Shown: positions 5,695-48,080 of the stretch, in pieces | Layout of the letters: the number at the start of each line of letters is the position of its first letter | How positions within the stretch are numbered: the first letter of the stretch is position 1 | NCBI GenBank assembly: GCA_965220825.1 | Contig: OZ244839.1 | Location: 2,301,377-2,365,376 of the forward strand | Source: Alphaproteobacteria bacterium | GTDB lineage: Bacteria; Pseudomonadota; Alphaproteobacteria; UBA828 | DNA length: 64,000 bases | Direction: 5' to 3' | Notes under the pieces: model-generated | Database searches by the model: none | What the model was told of the DNA's origin: nothing | What the model saw: only the letters and a program-made list of their open reading frames with translations | Made by a program: the position numbers and the translations under genes

Positions 5695-5796
5695 CGCCCC
5701 TCGGGGCGGACTTCAAGGTTTAGCCGATAGCGCCGCTGGCGGCGAGACGGTCCGTGGAACCGTCGACGCGGCGCGGCGTCGGCCGCGGGAAACGCG

Positions 5797-7311
5797 CTAG
5801 CTCTCGGCCAGCAGACGGGCTGTCAGGAGATTCGGGTCGAGCGGAATGTTCCGCAGAACAACGCCGACGGGACCGAGCGGTGGCAGGACCTTGCCGTCGA
5901 CACGCACCTCGAGAGCACCCGCATTGCCCGTCACCATGACAAGGCCCGGACGGTCGGGCACCCGGTAGATGTCACCCGGACGCAGGATGCGGGTCAACAG
6001 AAGTTCGTCGTCGGGCCCCTGCACCTGGACCCAGCTGTCGGCATAGGCCGCGATGACCACCCGGGCGGAGACGTTGCTGCGCCCGTAGACCTGCGGCACA
6101 TGGGCTTCGGCCTCGACCGCTGCGGGGGGCGCCGCGCCTGCATCGGCCGGGGCCGCTGCCTGCGGTTGCGCCTCGGGCGCGGCCGCGCTCTCCGTGGACG
6201 AAGGCGATGCCGGAACGCCGCTCTCGGGCAGCGTTTCGTAATCCAGCGCCGCTTCGATCGCGAGGTCCTGGGTGAAGGCTGCGACCTCGGGGGCCTCGAT
6301 CTCGGAGGCCGCCGGCGGGGTAGCGGCTTCGTTGCCGCCGACGGCTGCATCGGGCGCTCCGGCGGCAAGCGCGGCCTCCGCGCCATCGGCAGGGGCTGCG
6401 ACCGCAGCGGCGGCCGCACCGCTTTCGTCCCTGGCCGCCATATCGACGGTGGAAAGGGCCTCCGCCGGCTCAGGGGCCGCCGTCTCGACTGCCGCTTCGC
6501 GCGTTGCAGGCGGCGATGCGGACGCGACCGTTGATTCTGCTTCCGGCGCAACGAGTTCCTCCGGCGCAACGGCTGCCTCGTCCTCCGGCGGGACCGTTGC
6601 TTCCGGCGCAGAGATCGCCTCTGGCACCTCCGCAACCACTGTTTCCTCCGGTGCAACTGCAACGACTGCCTCCGGCGCGACGGTTGCCGCCGGTGCAACT
6701 GGAGCGACTGCCTCCGGCGCAACCGTTGCAGCCGGAGAGACGGTTGCCGCCGGTGTCGCGGTTTCGCCGGAGGCCGTTTCCTCGCCGCGTCCCACGGTCT
6801 CCGAGAAGCGGTCCGAAACGTCGGCGACCAGATCGGTCGCGACCCGCCCGTCGCTCTCGTAGTACTGCCAGCCGCCATAGGCGAGGCCGGCAAGAATAAG
6901 GGCTAACAGAACCAGCCAGGCCCGGGGCCTCCGGCCCTCTTTGCCGGGCGTTGGGAAGGAGAGATCGGCGCCGCCCGCTTCATGGTCCATCTCGCGTTTG
7001 AAGGCGTCCACCGTCTCCTGAATGTCGAGTTTGAGAAGGCCCGCATAGCTCCGCACGAAGCCCACCGCATAGGTCGCGCCCGGGAGCGCATCGAAGCGGC
7101 CCTCTTCCAACGCCGCCAAGTGGGACTCTTGAATGCGCAGCGTCTGGGCGGCATCGCGCAACTCGTAGCCGGCGCGGAGCCGCGCATCGTGCAGCGTACG
7201 GCACACATCGGGTACGGACCGGCGGTCGCCTTCCTCGACATCCGTCAATATCGGCTGCCCGGACCGAGCCGGCTCCACCGGCGCCCGCCGAAGGTCTCTC
7301 ATCGCTCGCAT
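5797..7311 (-). CDS. rodZ: RodZ-like cytoskeleton protein: N-terminal HTH, TM helix, long Ala/Pro/Glu/Val-rich linker, C-terminal DUF4115
   Basis: HTH segment DVCRTLHDARLRAGYELRDAAQTLRIQESHLAALEEGRF, TM segment WLVLLALILAGLAYGGW, DUF4115-like C-terminus. The exact start (M1 or M4) is uncertain. Confidence 0.65.
   Translation of the reverse strand: MRAMRDLRRAPVEPARSGQPILTDVEEGDRRSVPDVCRTLHDARLRAGYELRDAAQTLRIQESHLAALEEGRFDALPGATYAVGFVRSYAGLLKLDIQETVDAFKREMDHEAGGADLSFPTPGKEGRRPRAWLVLLALILAGLAYGGWQYYESDGRVATDLVADVSDRFSETVGRGEETASGETATPAATVSPAATVAPEAVAPVAPAATVAPEAVVAVAPEETVVAEVPEAISAPEATVPPEDEAAVAPEELVAPEAESTVASASPPATREAAVETAAPEPAEALSTVDMAARDESGAAAAAVAAPADGAEAALAAGAPDAAVGGNEAATPPAASEIEAPEVAAFTQDLAIEAALDYETLPESGVPASPSSTESAAAPEAQPQAAAPADAGAAPPAAVEAEAHVPQVYGRSNVSARVVIAAYADSWVQVQGPDDELLLTRILRPGDIYRVPDRPGLVMVTGNAGALEVRVDGKVLPPLGPVGVVLRNIPLDPNLLTARLLAES
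6290..6800. repeat. Degenerate short tandem repeats (12-18 bp units such as gcctccggcgcaac / ggttgccgccggtg) encoding the A/P/E/V-rich linker of the RodZ-like gene
   Basis: Visible reiterations in the DNA (ctccggcgca acggctgcctcg tcctccggcg ...) and in the protein (ATVAPEAVAPVAPAATVAPEAVVAVAPEE...). Confidence 0.6.
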
Positions 7312-7572
7312 CCCGCGGCCCGCACGCGACTTGCGGCTCCACGCCCGACAGCTTGAACTCCGTCTACCCGGCGTCCCAGATTAAGCAATGCGCGAGCCGT
7401 TTCCCTTGGTGAAGTCTGTCTAAGTTCAAAATTTACACCGCGTTATTCTCTTGCGCAAACAGGATGTACCGTTACGGCCGCATTTTTGTGCGGACGGACG
7501 TTGCGCCGCCGGGCCAATACCCCGTCCTTCGTGATACCGTCTCGGAATCGGCAGGTGAAACCGGAGGATCTG

Positions 7573-8352
7573 ATGGCGATTACTTTGCGCGGCAAGACGG
7601 CCATCGTGACCGGCGCGGGACGGGGCATCGGCAAGGGAATAGCGGCCGTCTTCGCCAGGGAGGGCGCCAGCGTGCTGGCGGTGAACCGGAGCGCGGCAGC
7701 GGGCGAGGCGGCGGTCGAGGCGATCCGCGCCGATGGCGGCGAGGCGTCGTTCCTGCAAGGCGACGTGAGGGTCCGCGCCGATATGGAGCGGATGGCCGAG
7801 GTCTGCGCGGCGCGCTACGGCGGGATCGACGTCTTGTGCCTCAACGCCGGCATCTATCCCACGGCGCCCATTGCCGAGATGCAGGACGAGACCTGGGACG
7901 AGACGGTCGACACCAATCTCAAGGGCGTCTTCTACGGCGTCCGCGCCTGCATTCCCCATATGAAGGCGCGGAAGAGGGGACGGATCATCGCGATTTCATC
8001 CATAACCGGCCCCAATGTGGGCTGGCCCGGACTCTCGCATTACATGGCGTCCAAGGGCGGCGTGAACGCATTCGTGATCGGCGCCGCGCTGGAGTTCGCC
8101 AAATACAACATCACGGTCAACGCCATATCGCCGGGCACGATCATGAGCCAGGGCCTGGAAGAACTCGGCGGCGGAAGCCTGGACGAAATCCGATCCGTCA
8201 TCCCGGTTGGCTATATCGGGGAGAGCGAGGATATCGCCTATGCCGCGGTCTATCTGGCGAGCGACGAGGCGCGTTACGTCACGGGCCAGGCGCTGGTGGT
8301 CGACGGCGGGCAGATCCTCCCCGAGAGCCCGGCGGCGCTCGCGGACGCGTAA
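7573..8352 (+). CDS. SDR family oxidoreductase
   Basis: TGAGRGIGKG Rossmann motif and YxxxK catalytic pair (YMASK). GGAGG RBS 7 nt upstream of MAITLRGK. The ORF-track start at 7486 is an upstream extension. Confidence 0.85.
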   Translation: MAITLRGKTAIVTGAGRGIGKGIAAVFAREGASVLAVNRSAAAGEAAVEAIRADGGEASFLQGDVRVRADMERMAEVCAARYGGIDVLCLNAGIYPTAPIAEMQDETWDETVDTNLKGVFYGVRACIPHMKARKRGRIIAISSITGPNVGWPGLSHYMASKGGVNAFVIGAALEFAKYNITVNAISPGTIMSQGLEELGGGSLDEIRSVIPVGYIGESEDIAYAAVYLASDEARYVTGQALVVDGGQILPESPAALADA

Positions 8353-8512
8353 GGAGGACGCCTGCGGAGTCCAGATGAAACAAGACCGCGATTGTGCTTA
8401 GATGGCCGCGCGACGCGAAGGGCCACCGGTGCCTTCGGTGCATGGAGACGGAAACGGAGCGTAGCCGCGAAGGGCGCAGTGGCCCGGCGGCGCGGCAGAT
8501 GGGAGATAGGGC

Positions 8513-41665: not shown

Positions 41666-43474
41666 TCACCGCGCCGCCCGGCGGCGGGCATGCACGTCGA
41701 GTAGGCGCTTGCGGAGGCGAATGGAGACGGGTGTGACCTCGACGAGCTCGTCGTCGGCGACATAGGCGAGGGCCTCTTCCAGAGACAGGACCCGCGGCGG
41801 GGTAAGGCGGACCGTATCGTCCTTGCCGGCGGCCCTCACATTGCTCAACTGCCGGGCTTTGGTCGGATTCACGTCGAGGTCCTGGGGACGGGCGTGCTCT
41901 CCCACGATCATCCCGCCATAGACCGGCTCGCCCGGTCCGACGAAGAGCATGCCGCGCTGCTCGAGCCCCCGCAGGGCGTATGCGGCGGCTGCGCCCGCCG
42001 CACTGGAGACGAGCACGCCATTGCGCCGGGCTTCCAAGGGGCCCTTCCACGGCGCATGTTCCCGATAGGCCCGGTGCATTACGGCAGTACCCCGGCTGAT
42101 GGAGAGAAGTTCGCCGCCAAAGCCGATCAGACCCCGGGACGGGCCGTGAAAGAGCGCACGCACCCTTCCGCGCCCCGAGGGCTCGACGCCCACAAGCTCG
42201 GCTCGGCACGCAGCCAGCGCCGAGACCACGTCGCCGACGAACGGCTCGTCCAGGTCGATCTGGATCTCCTCCATGGGCTCGAGTGCGGGGCCGCCCGACG
42301 GGTCCTCGCGCATCAGCACCTCTGGGCGGGAGACGGAGAGCTCGAACCCCTCGCGGCGCATGGTTTCGATCAGGACGGCGAGCTGCAGCTCGCCGCGGCC
42401 CGCCACCTCGAAGGCGCCTTCGCGCCCCGTTTCGCGGACCGCGATGGCCACATTGCTCTCCGCCTCCTGCGCAAGCCGCGCGGCAATGACGCGGGAGGTG
42501 AGCTTCCCGCCCTCGCGCCCGGCAAAGGGAGAATCGTTGACCGAAAACACCATGGCGATGGTGGGCGGGTCCACGGGCGCCGCGGGGACGGGTGCCGCGT
42601 CCTCCGAGGCCGCGATCGTATCGGAGACGGAAGCGGCGGCGAGGCCGGCAAGGGTCACGATCTCGCCCGCCTCGGCGCGCTCCGCCGCCACGCGCTCCAA
42701 CCCGCGGGCCTTCAGCAGCTTCGTGAGGCGCGCACTCTCCACCAACCGCCCGTCGGTACCGAGGGCCGCAACGATCTGGTTGTGCGCCACATGTCCCGAG
42801 AGCACCCGTCCCGTCGCCAGCCGGCCGAGATGGGGATCCGGCTCGATCAGCGCGACCGACATGCGGAAGGGCGCGCGGGGCGCCACGACGGGCGCGGGCA
42901 CACGCTCGACGATCGCATCGAAGAGCGGCGTCATGTCGGCGCCCGCGGCGTCCGGCGTTCGCGATGCCCAGCCTTCGCGCGCGGAGCTGTAGACCACGGG
43001 GAAGTCGAGCTGGGCCTCGTCGGCGCCAAGGGCGTCGAAGAGGTCGAACACCGCCTCGTGGACCGCATCGGGCCTTGCATCGGAACGGTCCATCTTGCTG
43101 ATCACGACCACAGGCTCGAGCCGGCGGCGCAGCGCCTTGTCCACCACGAACTTGGTCTGGGGCATGGGGCCTTCGGCGGCGTCTACCAGAAGGAGAACCC
43201 CGTCCACCATGGCGAGCGCGCGCTCCACCTCGCCGCCGAAATCGGTGTGTCCGGGCGTGTCCACGATGTTTATGCGCACGCCCCGCCATTCCACCGACGT
43301 GCATTTCGCAAGGATGGTGATGCCGCGCTCGCGCTCGAGGTCGGCGCTGTCGAGCGCGCGTTCCCGGAGCCTGCGGTTCGCCCGCACGGCGCCGCTCTGG
43401 CGCAGCATGGCGTCCACGAGCGTCGTCTTGCCATGGTCGACATGGGCGATGATGGCGATGTTGCGGAGGTCCAT
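41666..43474 (-). CDS. typA: Translational GTPase TypA/BipA
   Basis: MDLRNIAIIAHVDHGKTTLVD G1 motif, DTPGH, NKMD-like SKMD. 602 aa. Start trimmed from the 733-aa track ORF. Confidence 0.9.
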   Translation of the reverse strand: MDLRNIAIIAHVDHGKTTLVDAMLRQSGAVRANRRLRERALDSADLERERGITILAKCTSVEWRGVRINIVDTPGHTDFGGEVERALAMVDGVLLLVDAAEGPMPQTKFVVDKALRRRLEPVVVISKMDRSDARPDAVHEAVFDLFDALGADEAQLDFPVVYSSAREGWASRTPDAAGADMTPLFDAIVERVPAPVVAPRAPFRMSVALIEPDPHLGRLATGRVLSGHVAHNQIVAALGTDGRLVESARLTKLLKARGLERVAAERAEAGEIVTLAGLAAASVSDTIAASEDAAPVPAAPVDPPTIAMVFSVNDSPFAGREGGKLTSRVIAARLAQEAESNVAIAVRETGREGAFEVAGRGELQLAVLIETMRREGFELSVSRPEVLMREDPSGGPALEPMEEIQIDLDEPFVGDVVSALAACRAELVGVEPSGRGRVRALFHGPSRGLIGFGGELLSISRGTAVMHRAYREHAPWKGPLEARRNGVLVSSAAGAAAAYALRGLEQRGMLFVGPGEPVYGGMIVGEHARPQDLDVNPTKARQLSNVRAAGKDDTVRLTPPRVLSLEEALAYVADDELVEVTPVSIRLRKRLLDVHARRRAAR

Positions 43475-43529
43475 GGGAGGGGGAGTGGTGCCGTCCACGC
43501 CTTGGTGCGGCCCGGTCCGGCGCAGCGGC

Positions 43530-44426
43530 TCAGTCGAACACGGGCGTTGCGTGGGCGCCGGACTCGCGGAGCTCCCAGTAGAGCCGGTCGAGCCGGCGCG
43601 TGACGGGGCCGGGGCAGGGTTCGGGAAGCCGACGGCCGGCGATCTCGCGCACCGCCAGCGCGCCGCCGGCCGTGCTGCAGGTAAAGACCTCGTCGGCCGT
43701 GTAGAGGTCGAAGGGGGTGAGGTCGCTCTCCTCGAGGGGGAGCGCGGCGTCCGCGGCGAGCTCGATAAAGGTCTCGCGCGTGATCCCGCGCAGTATGTTG
43801 CGCCCCGGCGTGCGCACGACGCCCTCTTTGACCGCGAAGAGGTTGGAAGCGGGCCCTTCGCAGACATGGCCGGCCTGGTCGAGCCAGATCACGTCGTCAT
43901 AGCCGGCTTCCAGCGCCTCGATGCGCGCCATCTGGGAATGCAGCCGGTCGAGGCATTTGTAGCGGGGGTCGAGCGTATCGGGAGAGAAGGCGCGCAGATG
44001 GGTGATGTGGAGCCGGATGCCCTGCCGCCGGGCCGCGTCGTCGGCGAGAAAGACGTAAGGCGCGGCCCAGACCACGCGCGTCGGCTCGAAGTCTCGCGGG
44101 TCGGCGAGAACGGCATTGGGCGCGCCGCGGGTCGCAATGAAGCGGATGCTGGCGTCCCGCAGGCCGTTCCGCCGGCAGGTCTCGACGATGGCGGCGGGCC
44201 AGTCCTCGCTTTCGATGGCGCTCTCGAGGCGCGCGGCGCGCAGCGATTCGAAGAAGCGCGCCACATGCCCCTCCAGCTTGAAGATCGAGCCGCGCCAAGC
44301 CGAGACCACGTCGAACACGCCGTCTCCGAGCAGAAAGCCCTGATCCAGAATGGAGATCCGGGCCTCGTTCAGGGGCACGTACTCGCCGTTGAGATAGACG
44401 ATGGGCTCGTTGGACGTCCCCGTCAT
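43530..44426 (-). CDS. Aminotransferase class IV (branched-chain/D-amino-acid aminotransferase family)
   Basis: 299 aa from MTGTSNEPIVYLNGEYVPLNEARIS. Fold-type IV PLP motifs (RFIATRG, EVFTCSTAGG). GGAGA RBS. Confidence 0.8.
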   Translation of the reverse strand: MTGTSNEPIVYLNGEYVPLNEARISILDQGFLLGDGVFDVVSAWRGSIFKLEGHVARFFESLRAARLESAIESEDWPAAIVETCRRNGLRDASIRFIATRGAPNAVLADPRDFEPTRVVWAAPYVFLADDAARRQGIRLHITHLRAFSPDTLDPRYKCLDRLHSQMARIEALEAGYDDVIWLDQAGHVCEGPASNLFAVKEGVVRTPGRNILRGITRETFIELAADAALPLEESDLTPFDLYTADEVFTCSTAGGALAVREIAGRRLPEPCPGPVTRRLDRLYWELRESGAHATPVFD

Positions 44427-44987
44427 CGCGCGCGTCTCCCTTGGTGGGCTGCCGTCCGGCCCGGCGAGACTACACGAAGTACCGCCTGTTCGCCCGGCGA
44501 CCGGCTCCTCGTGTCGGGAACATTCTGAATTGACCCTTCTGTTGATGTTGCTGGGCCTGTGTGCCCCGTGGAGACGGCTCACACATCCCGCGGGTTGGCG
44601 TGTCCATGGGCTCGCCGCCGGCGCGGTAGCATTCCAGGCAGTGGGGTCCGCGGAAGAACGCCAATGCGCCATCCGGATGTTCGCCCACCGCGACACCGTG
44701 ACCTTCGCCTTGACATGGTGGCGGCGGTGGCGGTCGGGCGGGATTTCACAAACTCACCGTACCGGCGAGCGCGGCCGCGGCGAAGCCCGCACCAACACCC
44801 GTCTAGGACTACTTCAAAATCTTCAAGCGGAGTATGAAGGGCGTCTAACGGCTCTGCTCCAAGCGCCACCTGCATCGCCGCGCTGCGGAGTTCGGGTTTC
44901 GCCACAACGACCGTGAGGGCAACGGACAGGATGGCGCGTTCCGGGCGGGCTTACCGTTGCAAGCAGCCTTGAGAAGGCGTCTAATGT

Positions 44988-45731
44988 ATGATGAACCTCG
45001 TGCATGAGAGTGGAGGGGCGTTGCCTGCGTTGAACCATGCGGAGTTTTGGCGCGAGCGGATCACTATCCCTGTCTACCACGTAGGTGAGGCAGCGCGCTA
45101 TGCAGACATCTCCGCTCAGAGCATAGCCTACTGGCAGAGGATTCGTCGAGGCGGAGCATCGGTACTCGGCCCTCGTGCACGGCGTGCTGCTCTCTCCTAT
45201 CTGCAGCTGATCGAGGTCGGCGTCGTCGCGGCCATGCGTCGGTCTGGCGTCAAGCTGCGCACGATCGAGGCCGCACGCCGCTATCTATCGGAGACCTTCG
45301 GCACTGAGTATCCGTTCGCCGCGTACCGGTTCAAGACCGACGGCAAGGAGATACTCATGGGCATGGAGCAGTTCGAGGGATCGCAAGAGGCGGACAAACT
45401 TCTCAACCCTGGCACGGGTGGCCAGCTTGGGTGGAATCTGATACTCAGCCGCCTCCTGAACGAGTTCGATTATAGCCATGCTGAAGATATCGTGCGCCTT
45501 TGGAGGGTCGCGGGGGAAAATCAACCCATCCGCATTGATCCAGCCGTCGCATTCGGAGCACCTCATGTTGGCGGAATAGCCACTTGGGCGCTGAAGCAAC
45601 GCTGGGATAGTGGCGAGAGCATTCTGGAAATTGCCGACGACTACAGCCTCGAGCGTTGTGATGTTGTCGCTGCACTGAAATTCGAGGCGGTTGACGTGGA
45701 CATCGACCGTCCGCCTTTGTGGCAGAACTGA
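44988..45731 (+). CDS. DUF433-like domain protein with an N-terminal extension; putative antitoxin-like partner
   Basis: C-terminal PAVAFGAPHVGGIATWALKQRWDSGESILEIADDYSLERCDVVAALKFEA matches the DUF433 consensus. Lower GC than flanking genes. Confidence 0.5.
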   Translation: MMNLVHESGGALPALNHAEFWRERITIPVYHVGEAARYADISAQSIAYWQRIRRGGASVLGPRARRAALSYLQLIEVGVVAAMRRSGVKLRTIEAARRYLSETFGTEYPFAAYRFKTDGKEILMGMEQFEGSQEADKLLNPGTGGQLGWNLILSRLLNEFDYSHAEDIVRLWRVAGENQPIRIDPAVAFGAPHVGGIATWALKQRWDSGESILEIADDYSLERCDVVAALKFEAVDVDIDRPPLWQN

Positions 45732-46111
45732 CTTTCTTCTTTGACCGCAATATAGGAGTGCGAGTGCCCAAGGCGCTTCGCTCGCTGCGCCCACCAATCT
45801 ACATCAAGTACCATCAGGAATTGGGCCTCGCTCTTGATGCGCAGGACGACGAGTGGCTGGCGCAGGTCGGCGCAAAGGGGTGGGTGGTTATCAGCCAGGA
45901 TCGAAAATTCCACCAGTTGCGATCAGAATTGGCGGCGGTACAGGCGCATTCCGTCCGATGCTTCTATCTTCATGGAGGCAGCGAACCTATGTGGTATACA
46001 TTTCGGGACTTCACTTGTGCGCTTTCCCGCATGATCAAAATAGCGGAACAGCAGCTGCCACCCTTCATCTACGAACTCAAGGGGAGGAGGTTATGTCGCG
46101 TGACATTCTAA
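45719..46111 (+). CDS. PIN-like small protein (DUF5615-like); putative toxin partner
   Basis: 130 aa. GTG start overlaps the upstream gene by 13 nt. N-terminal LTFFFDRNIGVRVPKAL resembles the DUF5615/Mut7-C PIN-like start motif. ~52% GC. Confidence 0.45.
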   Translation: MAELTFFFDRNIGVRVPKALRSLRPPIYIKYHQELGLALDAQDDEWLAQVGAKGWVVISQDRKFHQLRSELAAVQAHSVRCFYLHGGSEPMWYTFRDFTCALSRMIKIAEQQLPPFIYELKGRRLCRVTF

Positions 46112-46624
46112 CGCCGCCATCCGATTCCCCGCAGCGCGACCGCTTCCTCAAGTAGGCGCGACAGCTTGAGTGTGACCAAGATGAAGGGTAGTTCAACGAG
46201 ATGCTGCGGCGGGTGTCTTAAGGGTCCGGCAAAGGAAAAGCCGACTTTGGCGCCCGATTGAACGGGTTATTCCTGCTCATACCGGCGGTCGAACCGTTGA
46301 GGGCCTCGAAGCCCGCGCCCCAGGCTGCACCGGCAAGTCCCGCCTTTTCGCCGCCGTATCGAAACCGGGCCGCGTCGTTGCACAGGCTGGAGGCGGGGGA
46401 TACAGTCGCTTCGGCCTTTGCCGGCGCGGCTCCCGGGTCGCGTGGCCGTGCGGACGATGGATCGCCCGGTCCCGGCCGGCAAACGGCGGGAGGCGCGAGG
46501 GGCGCGCGGGGGTGCGCCGCGCAGACGTCTCATTCACCTGGAACACGGAAAGAAGCGCGCGCCCGCGGCGTGCGTGGAAGGCGGTATGGGGCGAGAGGCG
46601 GTCGGGCGCTACGCAAGGCGTGGC

Positions 46625-47380
46625 ATGTTGGGTGTAATGGCGCTGGCGGCGCTCGCCCTCTGCCTCGCGGCCCGGCCGGCGGGAGCGGAGCGGATTTTCG
46701 TGCTCGCCGCGGCCAGCACCGCCGAGGCCGTTGAGGAGGTCATCGCCCGTTTCGACGCGGGCCCCGGCAACCGGATCGTCGGCTCCTACGCCGGAACGGC
46801 GGCGCTCGCGCGGCAGATCGAGAGCGGCGCGCCGGCGGACCTCTTCCTTGCGGCGAACACCGCCTGGATGGAGAGGCTGGAGAGGCTCGGGCTCGTCGAG
46901 CGGGAAGGGGACCGCGCATTGCTCGGCAACCGCCTGGTCTTCGTCTCCGCCGAACCCGGCATTGCCCCCTTCGACATCTCTCCCGCTCTGGATCTCGCGG
47001 CCCTGCTGGACGGCGGGCGCCTCGCCATGGGCGATCCACACCATGTGCCGGCGGGAATCTACGCCGCCCAGGCGCTGGAGGCGCTCGGGCTGTGGGCGGC
47101 GGTTGCGGGCATGATCGCGCCGGCGGCGGATGTGCGTGCGGCGCTTGCGCTGGTCGCGCGCGGCGAAGCGCCGCTCGGCATCGTCTACGCGACCGATGTT
47201 GCACGCGCACCGGGCCTCAGAGCGGTCGCGGCGATACCGGAAGATCTGCACGCGCCGATCCGCTACCCCCTCGCCCGCGTGCGCGGACGGGAATCGCCGC
47301 TCGCCGCGCGCTTTCTGGCGTTCCTGCGCGGACCCGAGGGGCGGGACGCGTTCGCCCGCGCGGGCTTCCTCGTGGAGTAG
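46625..47380 (+). CDS. modA: Molybdate ABC transporter substrate-binding protein
   Basis: Signal MLGVMALAALALCLAARPAGA. ModA motifs (AAASTAEA, FLAANTAWM, PAGIYA). Alternative start at 46586. Confidence 0.8.
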   Translation: MLGVMALAALALCLAARPAGAERIFVLAAASTAEAVEEVIARFDAGPGNRIVGSYAGTAALARQIESGAPADLFLAANTAWMERLERLGLVEREGDRALLGNRLVFVSAEPGIAPFDISPALDLAALLDGGRLAMGDPHHVPAGIYAAQALEALGLWAAVAGMIAPAADVRAALALVARGEAPLGIVYATDVARAPGLRAVAAIPEDLHAPIRYPLARVRGRESPLAARFLAFLRGPEGRDAFARAGFLVE

Positions 47381-47384
47381 GACC

Positions 47385-48080
47385 GTGGGACTCACCGCAC
47401 TGGAGGCGGAGGCCGTTCTGCTCAGCCTGCGCGTGGCGGGCTGGGCGGTGCTGGCAAGCCTTCCCTTCGGCGTCGGCGTCGCCTGGCTGCTCGCGCGCCA
47501 CCGCTTCCCCGGCCATGCGCTGCTGAACAGCCTGGTGCATCTGCCGCTGATTCTGCCCCCGGTGGTGGTGGGCTTCGCGCTGCTGCTGCTGCTGGGCAAG
47601 CGCGGCCCCATCGGCGCGTGGCTCCACGACTGGTTCGGAGTAACCCTCGCCTTCACCTGGCAGGGCGCGGCCATCGCGTCGGCCGTCGTCTCCTTTCCGC
47701 TCATGGTACGGGCGATCCGGCTTTCCATCGAGGCGGCGGACCGGCGGCTGGAGGCGGCGGCGCGTACGCTGGGCGCGCCGCCCGCCTGGGTCTTTTTGAG
47801 CGTCAGCCTGCCGCTCATCGCTCCCGGCGTGCTGACCGGCGCGATCCTCGCCTTCGCCCGATGTCTCGGCGAGTTCGGCGCGACGATCACCTTCGTCTCG
47901 AACATTCCAGGCGAGACGCGGACGCTGCCGCTTGCGCTCTACACCCTTACCCAGGCGCCGGGCGGGCTCGACGGCGCGTTCCGCCTGATGGCGATCGCCA
48001 TCGCCGTGGCGCTGGCTGCGCTGCTCGGCTCGGAGCTTCTTGCCCGCGCGCTCCGGCGAAGGCTGGAAGGCCCATGCTGA
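47385..48080 (+). CDS. modB: Molybdate ABC transporter permease
   Basis: GTG start. EAAARTLGA loop. 5 TM segments. Confidence 0.85.
   Translation: MGLTALEAEAVLLSLRVAGWAVLASLPFGVGVAWLLARHRFPGHALLNSLVHLPLILPPVVVGFALLLLLGKRGPIGAWLHDWFGVTLAFTWQGAAIASAVVSFPLMVRAIRLSIEAADRRLEAAARTLGAPPAWVFLSVSLPLIAPGVLTGAILAFARCLGEFGATITFVSNIPGETRTLPLALYTLTQAPGGLDGAFRLMAIAIAVALAALLGSELLARALRRRLEGPC

Follow-up and report, generated by a model that had tools for sequence, protein, structure and literature searches.

In the 64,000-nucleotide stretch of the alphaproteobacterial contig OZ244839.1 analysed here (the window), two overlapping open reading frames (ORFs) on the forward strand, at 45021..45731 and 45719..46111, lie in the kilobase with the lowest GC content. 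They form a toxin-antitoxin (TA) pair of the DUF433-PIN_10 family, and it is this pair, together with the islet of foreign DNA that surrounds it (44755..46221, forward strand), that is considered below. Their overlap is 13 nt long, the toxin gene beginning at a GTG within the final codons of the antitoxin gene. Across the region from ~44800 to ~46300, the GC content is 0.53-0.62 compared with ~0.67-0.74 in the flanks (300-nt windows), and the 1-kb bin 45001-46000, at 0.583, is the minimum of the 64 bins in the window, the second-lowest being 0.630. The GC content at third codon positions (GC3) is 0.66 for the DUF433 gene and 0.63 for the PIN_10 gene, against 0.86 for typA, 0.89 (0.886) for the class-IV aminotransferase gene, 0.85 (0.853) for modA and 0.88 for modB. 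The low GC content of the islet is real and well beyond chance. An earlier note on this DNA had described ORFs at 44988-45731 and 45719-46111 with a 13-nt overlap and a drop in GC content relative to the flanks; both ORFs are present as it gave them, and the windowed GC, the 1-kb bins and GC3 all bear out the drop.

The longest ORF of the antitoxin gene runs from 44988 to 45731 (247 aa), and its ATG at 44988 falls within what was formerly transposase coding sequence. The likely start is the TTG at 45021, which follows a Shine-Dalgarno (SD) sequence GGAGGGG at 45012-45018, is shared by the five close elements and yields a product of 236 aa. This product is of the VapB45/Rv2018 type, with an N-terminal helix-turn-helix (HTH), a middle region and a C-terminal DUF433 domain. 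The DUF433 domain, which had already been proposed for the C-terminus of the upstream product, was recognised by Pfam at residues 181-232 with 34.5 bits (cut-off 23.6). The HTH match was weak, HTH_66 scoring 18.4 bits at residues 28-95, under its cut-off of 24.3, and a search of NCBIfam with both proteins of the pair returned nothing. As a single sequence, the antitoxin matched PDB entry 5AF3, the Rv2018/VapB45 antitoxin of Mycobacterium tuberculosis, over residues 24-222 (E=3e-7), and a profile of 37 family members matched the same entry over positions 10-218 of 235 (E=9.6e-18). The PIN_10 locus set used for comparison comprised 73 non-redundant loci; a metagenome scan with a single protein gave nothing, and one based on an alignment was successful. 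Antitoxin homologs are typically 233-236 aa long, and a long DUF433 gene lies directly upstream of PIN_10 in 64/64 non-redundant loci with enough upstream sequence. The arrangement of HTH, middle region and DUF433 is the normal predicted architecture for partners of PIN_10. The earlier suggestion of an unusually long antitoxin, and possibly a non-canonical variant, therefore falls, given the usual length of 233-236 aa, the full-length match to Rv2018 and the 64 loci.

The toxin gene (45719..46111, forward strand, GTG start) encodes 130 aa. Its product matched Pfam PIN_10, a family in the Mut7-C group of PIN-like nucleases, with 59.9 bits (cut-off 26.2), residues 5-85 corresponding to model positions 2-83 of 84. 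The toxin had been likened to DUF5615/Mut7-C PIN-like proteins, and the assignment to the Mut7-C group stands while that to DUF5615 itself does not. DUF5615 (PF18480), the sister family of PIN_10, scored 21.1 bits, short of its Pfam gathering cut-off of 23.8, and is not the best assignment for this toxin. When 18 homologs were aligned, D43, D44 and D61 were invariant and D9 was nearly so, and all four are present in the window protein. By analogy with mutants of Rv2019, the toxin partner of Rv2018, and with PIN biology in general, these acidic residues are probably catalytic or metal-binding. The AlphaFold2 model of the toxin (pLDDT 85) is an alpha/beta sandwich. A public annotation of the toxin (P0121) has 115 aa and begins past the conserved FFDRN motif, without D9, and all of the close homologs are 130-132 aa long. 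Since the 115-aa call would remove D9, the 130-aa reading is the correct one, and the public gene call is thereby corrected from 115 to 130 aa with the first conserved aspartate restored. The stop/start geometry between antitoxin and toxin is kept in 63/67 non-redundant loci; it is family-wide and not due to chance. When plasmid proteins were searched with the toxin, only distant DUF5615-like matches were found.

The DNA on either side of the pair contains the remains of an insertion sequence (IS). To the left, at 44755..45007 on the forward strand, lie the last ~84 codons of an IS1595-family transposase (tnp) gene, which is now a pseudogene with in-frame stop codons at 44804-44806 (TAG) and 44846-44848 (TAA), and with its original TGA stop at 45005-45007. 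Everything upstream of codon ~232 has been deleted, along with the left terminal inverted repeat (IRL). In tblastn searches with four intact transposases, this segment matched residues ~250-319 at 55-63% identity (E=1e-18 to 1e-20), and in blastn searches it was the only part to find matches among plasmid DNA, in genes annotated as 'IS1595 family transposase'. To the right, at 46093..46221 on the forward strand, is a decayed small acidic ORF, which is linked to the IS in relatives. It retains a strong SD sequence (GGAGGAGG, 46083-46090), is broken in frame by a TAG at 46153-46155 and another at 46189-46191, and ends with TAA at 46219-46221; the small ORFs of three intact elements (L001, L073 and L074) aligned with it through the stops at 51-56% identity (E~1e-12). 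DNA homology to intact tnp-TA units is continuous from 44755/44764 to 46212-46214, at 81-83% for L073/L072 and ~70% for L001/L074. The pair had been described as lying between non-coding stretches of ~560 bp and ~470 bp, but IS pseudogene remnants account for ~250 bp of the left stretch and ~125 bp of the right one.

The core of the inverted repeats (IRs), searched for with up to 2-3 mismatches, has no copy anywhere in the window, and tblastn detected no second IS1595 transposase there, so the element in the window is a truncated, immobile fossil. It has neither the intact Zn-ribbon and DDE_Tnp_IS1595 transposase nor the terminal IRs nor the 8-bp target-site duplication (TSD) by which a working IS of this kind is recognised. 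No significant direct repeats flank the islet in the window, and a wider search for flanking direct or inverted repeats that could serve as attachment sites or TSDs gave only short, chance-level matches; the sole tRNA gene, considered as a possible integration site, is 10 kb away. Because both IRs and two thirds of tnp have been lost, and nonsense codons have accumulated in the rest of tnp and in the small ORF, the element can no longer move.

The structure of the original element can be seen in relatives. In four independent contigs (L001, L072, L073 and L074), a gene for a transposase of 314-319 aa lies directly upstream of the pair on the same strand, and a 55-59-aa ORF follows the pair, overlapping the end of the toxin gene. 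The transposases of the intact relatives carry the Zn_ribbon_IS1595 and DDE_Tnp_IS1595 domains (129.7 and 41.2 bits in L073, for example). The order of the intact unit is IRL, tnp, antitoxin, toxin, small ORF, in some cases variable extra cargo, and the right inverted repeat (IRR). The IRR sits downstream of the boundary of blastn homology and was located by means of a conserved core, CTTGACAAACCA. The element in L074 (2576 bp) has perfect 24-nt IRs, GGCGATGTTGTACTTGACAAACCA, at 5720-5743 and 8272-8295, and an 8-bp direct duplication, ATTTATTG. IRs enclose tnp and the pair in 8/8 of the transposase-linked loci searched (L001, L074, L076, L087, L114, L115, L125 and L136), and a perfect TSD of 8 bp, the length typical of the IS1595 family, was found in six of these eight. 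Those six elements are 2.5-3.6 kb in size; besides the one in L074, they are located at 4934-8548 in L001 (3615 bp, TSD ATTATTTT), 4288-7458 in L076 (3171 bp, AAAAAAAA), 630-3454 in L115 (2825 bp, AACATAGT), 124-2589 in L125 (2466 bp, CAAGCTTT) and 4183-6680 in L136 (2498 bp, ATTTTCCT). The TSDs of all six are AT-rich.

The IRL holds a conserved promoter-like motif, TTGACA-N17-TATAT(C)/TATGTT, that points into tnp (L074:5720-5790, L001:4934-5003, L073:3035-3102 and L072:5491-5558), within a region laid out as GGCGAT...TTGACAAACCA...TATAT. In the close clade, the stop codon of tnp and the start of the antitoxin gene are separated by 16-20 nt. This short gap, together with the motif in the IRL, suggests that the TA genes are probably co-transcribed with the transposase in intact elements.

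Of the loci with full upstream room, 12/31 have a transposase gene directly upstream of the pair, as do 5/21 of those with partial room. Among 12 such loci, the identity of the transposase to the reference correlates with that of the TA genes (Spearman rho 0.66 and 0.71, n=12); as the two vary together, the linkage is old and not a recent accident. DUF433-PIN_10 pairs therefore ride in IS1595 elements bounded by IRs and TSDs in many lineages, with the transposase and the TA genes diverging together. The small ORF is present in 12/15 loci with a transposase and in 0/27 without one (Fisher p=4e-8). It looks like an uncharacterised accessory gene of the IS, and neither it nor the 91-aa ORF of L074 belongs to a Pfam or PHROG family. 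Copies of the small acidic ORF (window 46093-46221, L001:7049-7228, L073:5151-5324 and L074:7816-7983) share the conserved core KPQRDRFVETARELECDEDEDRFNETLKRI. Elements differ in the cargo that separates the small ORF from the IRR. In L074 it is a 91-aa ORF without a family at 7948-8223, and the element in L001 has an extra gene for an N6_N4 methyltransferase with HNH at 7197-8480 on the minus strand, within the IRs. A second type of linkage occurs at five loci (L082, L085, L088, L089 and L119), where the gene downstream of the pair, oppositely oriented, encodes an IS1595-type transposase with 33-49% identity to the reference. At L004:6001-7160, a copy of the pair with 58-64% identity has no adjacent transposase or small ORF and is located between a gene for an AAA_15/AAA_21 (SMC_N-like) ATPase and ffh-rpsP-rimM-trmD; it may be another TA pair that has survived without its carrier.

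The islet is thus an object of a known kind, a member of the DUF433-PIN_10 TA family in a fossilised carrier from the known class of IS1595 transporter ISs. We consider it highly probable that it is what is left of an IS1595-family transporter IS, of which only the TA pair, of the VapBC45 type, is still intact. The core of the earlier note, which read the genes as a pair of foreign origin made up of a DUF433 antitoxin and a PIN-like toxin of the Mut7-C group, is upheld by Pfam and by the Rv2018/Rv2019 prototype (PMC5175181), and the decayed IS1595-family element gives the horizontal origin stronger support than was foreseen. An unexplained low-GC TA islet is in this way replaced by a specific history, which offers a clean, datable example of how an orphan chromosomal TA islet is formed.

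The decay of the element has been uneven. When the window was compared with L073, a comparison that spans the whole divergence of the two, the ratio of nonsynonymous to synonymous substitution rates (dN/dS) was 0.137 for the antitoxin (dN 0.074, dS 0.54) and 0.110 for the toxin (dN 0.074, dS 0.67), so that both TA genes have been under purifying selection, whereas it was 0.43 for the transposase remnant (dN 0.27, dS 0.63) and 0.39 for the small ORF (dN 0.33, dS 0.86). Between two intact elements, the transposase C-terminus and the small ORF had dN/dS values of 0.24-0.27. There are 4 nonsense codons in the 376 nt of the remnants and 0 in the 1091 nt of the TA genes; by a crude Poisson calculation from the rate in the remnants, a rough estimate at best, the probability of this is ~1e-5 for both TA genes and 0.015 for the toxin gene alone. 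This contrast speaks for preservation of the pair during the decay of the remaining IS, through either selection or the addictive nature of the pair itself.

The explanation that survives best after this one is that the pair is a dead relic, which has been untranscribed since the promoter of the IS was lost and is intact only for lack of time to decay. In its favour, a scan for promoters and terminators found no promoter-like site in 44300-46700, although it was restricted to sigma-70 consensus sites, and the window lacks the IRL and its TTGACA-N17-TATAT motif. The GC3 of the TA genes in the window (0.63-0.66) is not above that in intact elements (0.65-0.75), so that there is no sign of amelioration toward the GC3 of the host (0.85-0.89), and this is compatible with a recent arrival. 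A dead relic is possible but hard to reconcile with the contrast in decay, as the dN of the remnants is 3.6-4.5 times that of the TA genes (0.27 and 0.33 vs 0.074) and the nonsense codons are confined to the remnants. The catalytic acids, the TTG and GTG starts and the SD sequence have also all been retained, and on balance we regard this explanation as unlikely.

Under the preferred reading of a fossil transporter IS, an IS1595-family element would have delivered the pair and then lost both IRs, the first two thirds of tnp and the function of the small ORF. If the toxin acts as Rv2019 does, it would be an RNase dependent on a divalent metal, breaking down rRNA and mRNA and arresting growth. 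The antitoxin, by analogy with Rv2018/Rv2019 and with type II TA biology, would bind and neutralise the toxin and would probably repress the operon through its HTH, and the 13-nt overlap could couple translation of the toxin to that of the antitoxin. During the mobile phase, the pair would most likely have kept the IS, or the replicon that bore it, stable by addiction. After immobilisation, addiction, along with any benefit to the host, could have spared both genes the deletions and mutations that ruined the other parts.

Several points weigh against this reading or limit it. Expression of the pair at present is the weakest link, because the promoter-like motif found in the IRL of intact elements has been deleted and the region has no sigma-70-like site. 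The dN/dS values include the time that the genes spent in active elements and are no proof of selection after immobilisation. The link from the toxin to Rv2019 runs through Pfam PIN_10 and the literature, not through a direct sequence comparison. The relatives with which the locus was compared are distant (71-73% identity for ModA and up to 84% for the aminotransferase), and no close empty site is among them. Finally, transposition into the site followed by decay, and arrival of an already truncated fragment by recombination, are indistinguishable here.

A different explanation is that the two proteins are accessory factors of the IS and not an autonomous TA system, a DNA-binding regulator and a nuclease that would assist or control transposition, with the survival of their genes in the window being functionless. 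The tight linkage to tnp, the stop codon of which precedes the start of the antitoxin gene by only 16-20 nt in the close clade, would fit this, as would the parallel divergence of transposase and TA genes and the presence of TA pairs in the transposition module of Tn3-family transposons (PMC7157771). It is improbable nonetheless, since no transposase adjoins the pair in 19/31 PIN_10 loci with full upstream room, the M. tuberculosis prototype is a self-contained RNase toxin with its antidote (PMC5175181), and the pair in the window, under purifying selection, has outlasted the transposase. Strict co-occurrence with the transposase is a property of the small ORF (12/15 vs 0/27) and not of the pair.

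A role in defence can be dismissed outright for no TA system. That this pair is an anti-phage module acting by abortive infection, which the earlier note had raised as an alternative, could draw on the fact that type II TA systems, those with PIN toxins included, can serve in phage defence (a general point touched on in a review, PMC12548467), on a DUF433-PIN_10 pair in a defence island of Belliella baltica (Matelska 2017, PMC5499597) and on the methyltransferase-HNH gene carried by the intact element of L001, but it is very doubtful given that the PADLOC models yielded no match (the antitoxin reached E=0.09 at best, and the toxin gave no hit), that there are no defence genes adjoining the pair in the window, that neither PHROG matches nor homologs in phage genomes were found, and that ISs, not defence islands, are the dominant context of PIN_10 loci.

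More tentatively, and with rather less than even confidence, we propose that in an old lineage of IS1595 transporter ISs the DUF433-PIN_10 pair and the small acidic ORF belong integrally to the transposition unit. The pair would be co-transcribed with the transposase from the promoter in the IRL, the antitoxin or the TA complex would regulate both the transposase and its own genes, and the IS would be addictive to its replicon. If this is true, the islet in the window is the predicted end state, in which all has decayed but the addiction module, and the concept of TA genes as part of the transposition module is extended from Tn3-family transposons to simple ISs, with a route from there to orphan chromosomal TA islets. 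The recurrent linkage between IS1595 elements and TA genes is a more interesting by-product of the analysis than the pair itself.

The genes on either side of the islet belong to the host and lie outside the element. On the left is a class-IV aminotransferase gene (43530..44426, reverse strand; Pfam Aminotran_4, E=3e-48), and on the right is modA (46586..47380, forward strand; Pfam SBP_bac_11, E=1e-53), the first gene of modABC, the homologs of which carry the name molybdate ABC transporter substrate-binding protein; Pfam agrees with the neighbours that had been named for the pair. The residual intergenic DNA between the start of the aminotransferase gene and the IS remnant (44427..44754, GC 0.67) is featureless, as is the host-like intergenic DNA upstream of modA (46222..46585, GC 0.70), and the ORFs in these two flanks have no Pfam matches. 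A scan of 43400-47400 against Rfam, including the Moco riboswitch upstream of modA, found no family.

Had the two genes been ancestral, relatives could be expected to carry them at the same locus with normal GC content, as the earlier note pointed out. In the closest relatives of ModA (71-73% identical), modABC-cupin-PBP is kept downstream, the genes found 110-310 bp upstream of modA differ, and the DUF433/PIN_10 pair is missing from these modA loci; nothing in the sequences suggests that the pair is ancestral at the aminotransferase-modA locus. The relatives of the aminotransferase (67 loci, up to 84% identity) share at most ~13 bp upstream of the ATG and are uninformative about an empty site, because none of them has typA or modA nearby. 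The aminotransferase-modA junction is a synteny breakpoint of this lineage that is independent of the islet (41666-44426 compared with L005-L044). In the closest modABC relatives, a canonical VapB/PIN pair (PF09957/PF01850) is found ~2.4 kb downstream of modC (L156:11227-11884 and L157:11074-11731); it belongs to another TA family than the pair in the window.

Among known systems, the pair is closest to VapBC45 (Rv2018/Rv2019) of M. tuberculosis, the prototype of the family. Makarova et al. (2009) pointed out that certain antitoxins of the COG2442/DUF433 group have a winged HTH fused to them, for example Rv2018, which is paired with the PIN gene Rv2019 (PMC2701414), and Matelska et al. (2017) placed PIN_10 in the Mut7-C group as a family of 'potential toxins' with the DUF433 antitoxin Rv2018/VapB45 as partner, naming a 'DUF433-PIN_10' TA system (PMC5499597). 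Rv2019 has been shown to stop Escherichia coli and M. smegmatis from growing, with Rv2018 neutralising it, and to be an EDTA-sensitive RNase active on rRNA and mRNA (Kim 2016, PMC5175181). As in VapBC45, an antitoxin of ~240 aa with HTH and DUF433 is encoded upstream of a PIN_10 toxin of ~130-140 aa; the antitoxin aligns with 5AF3 over nearly its full length, and the toxins share a Pfam family, with the acidic residues conserved. However, the identity of the antitoxins is low (single-sequence E=3e-7), the host is a high-GC, alphaproteobacterium-like MAG and not an actinobacterium, the copy in the window is derived from an IS1595-family element, and its activity is a prediction. The pairs of DUF5615/COG4634 with COG2442, such as VapBC10 of Synechocystis (PMC2701414, PMC3834315), are likewise predicted type II TA systems with a Mut7-C-group toxin and a DUF433 antitoxin upstream. 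Their antitoxins are single DUF433 domains of 70-80 aa, to which the antitoxin in the window adds the N-terminal HTH and the middle region, and its toxin, under the DUF5615 cut-off, is clearly over that of PIN_10.

It was in the IS1595 family that transporter ISs, those that bring passenger genes along, were first defined by Siguier, Gagnevin and Chandler in 2009, as cited in later work (PMC3129680, PMC11891212, PMC8496243). The intact relatives of our element agree with this class in their Zn-ribbon and DDE_Tnp_IS1595 transposase, their IRs, their 8-bp duplications and the passengers within the IRs. The passengers reported, so far as these citing papers name them, are regulators, methyltransferases and resistance genes, whereas here they are a TA pair and a small acidic ORF, and the copy in the window, without IRs or an intact transposase, is a fossil and non-functional member. 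A TA pair as IS1595 cargo was not described in the literature searched, which left out the founding 2009 paper and ISfinder, and an IS1595-TA element may already be registered in ISfinder.

The TA genes of Tn3-family transposons (Lima-Mendez 2020, PMC7157771) provide the other parallel. There too, TA pairs, in many cases with PIN-type toxins, recur as apparently integrated passengers beside DDE transposition genes, and their proposed role is to stabilise the element or its replicon. The differences are that Tn3 elements are large and have a resolvase, compared with small IS1595 elements, and that the pairs in that survey are PIN_3/RHH_6, ParE/ParD and Gp49/HTH_37, with no DUF433 or PIN_10 among them. 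In the IS1595 elements, the TA genes come after tnp in the same orientation and probably form one operon with it, and if this linkage is uncatalogued in ISfinder, simple ISs would join the transposons in which TA modules are quasi-core components.

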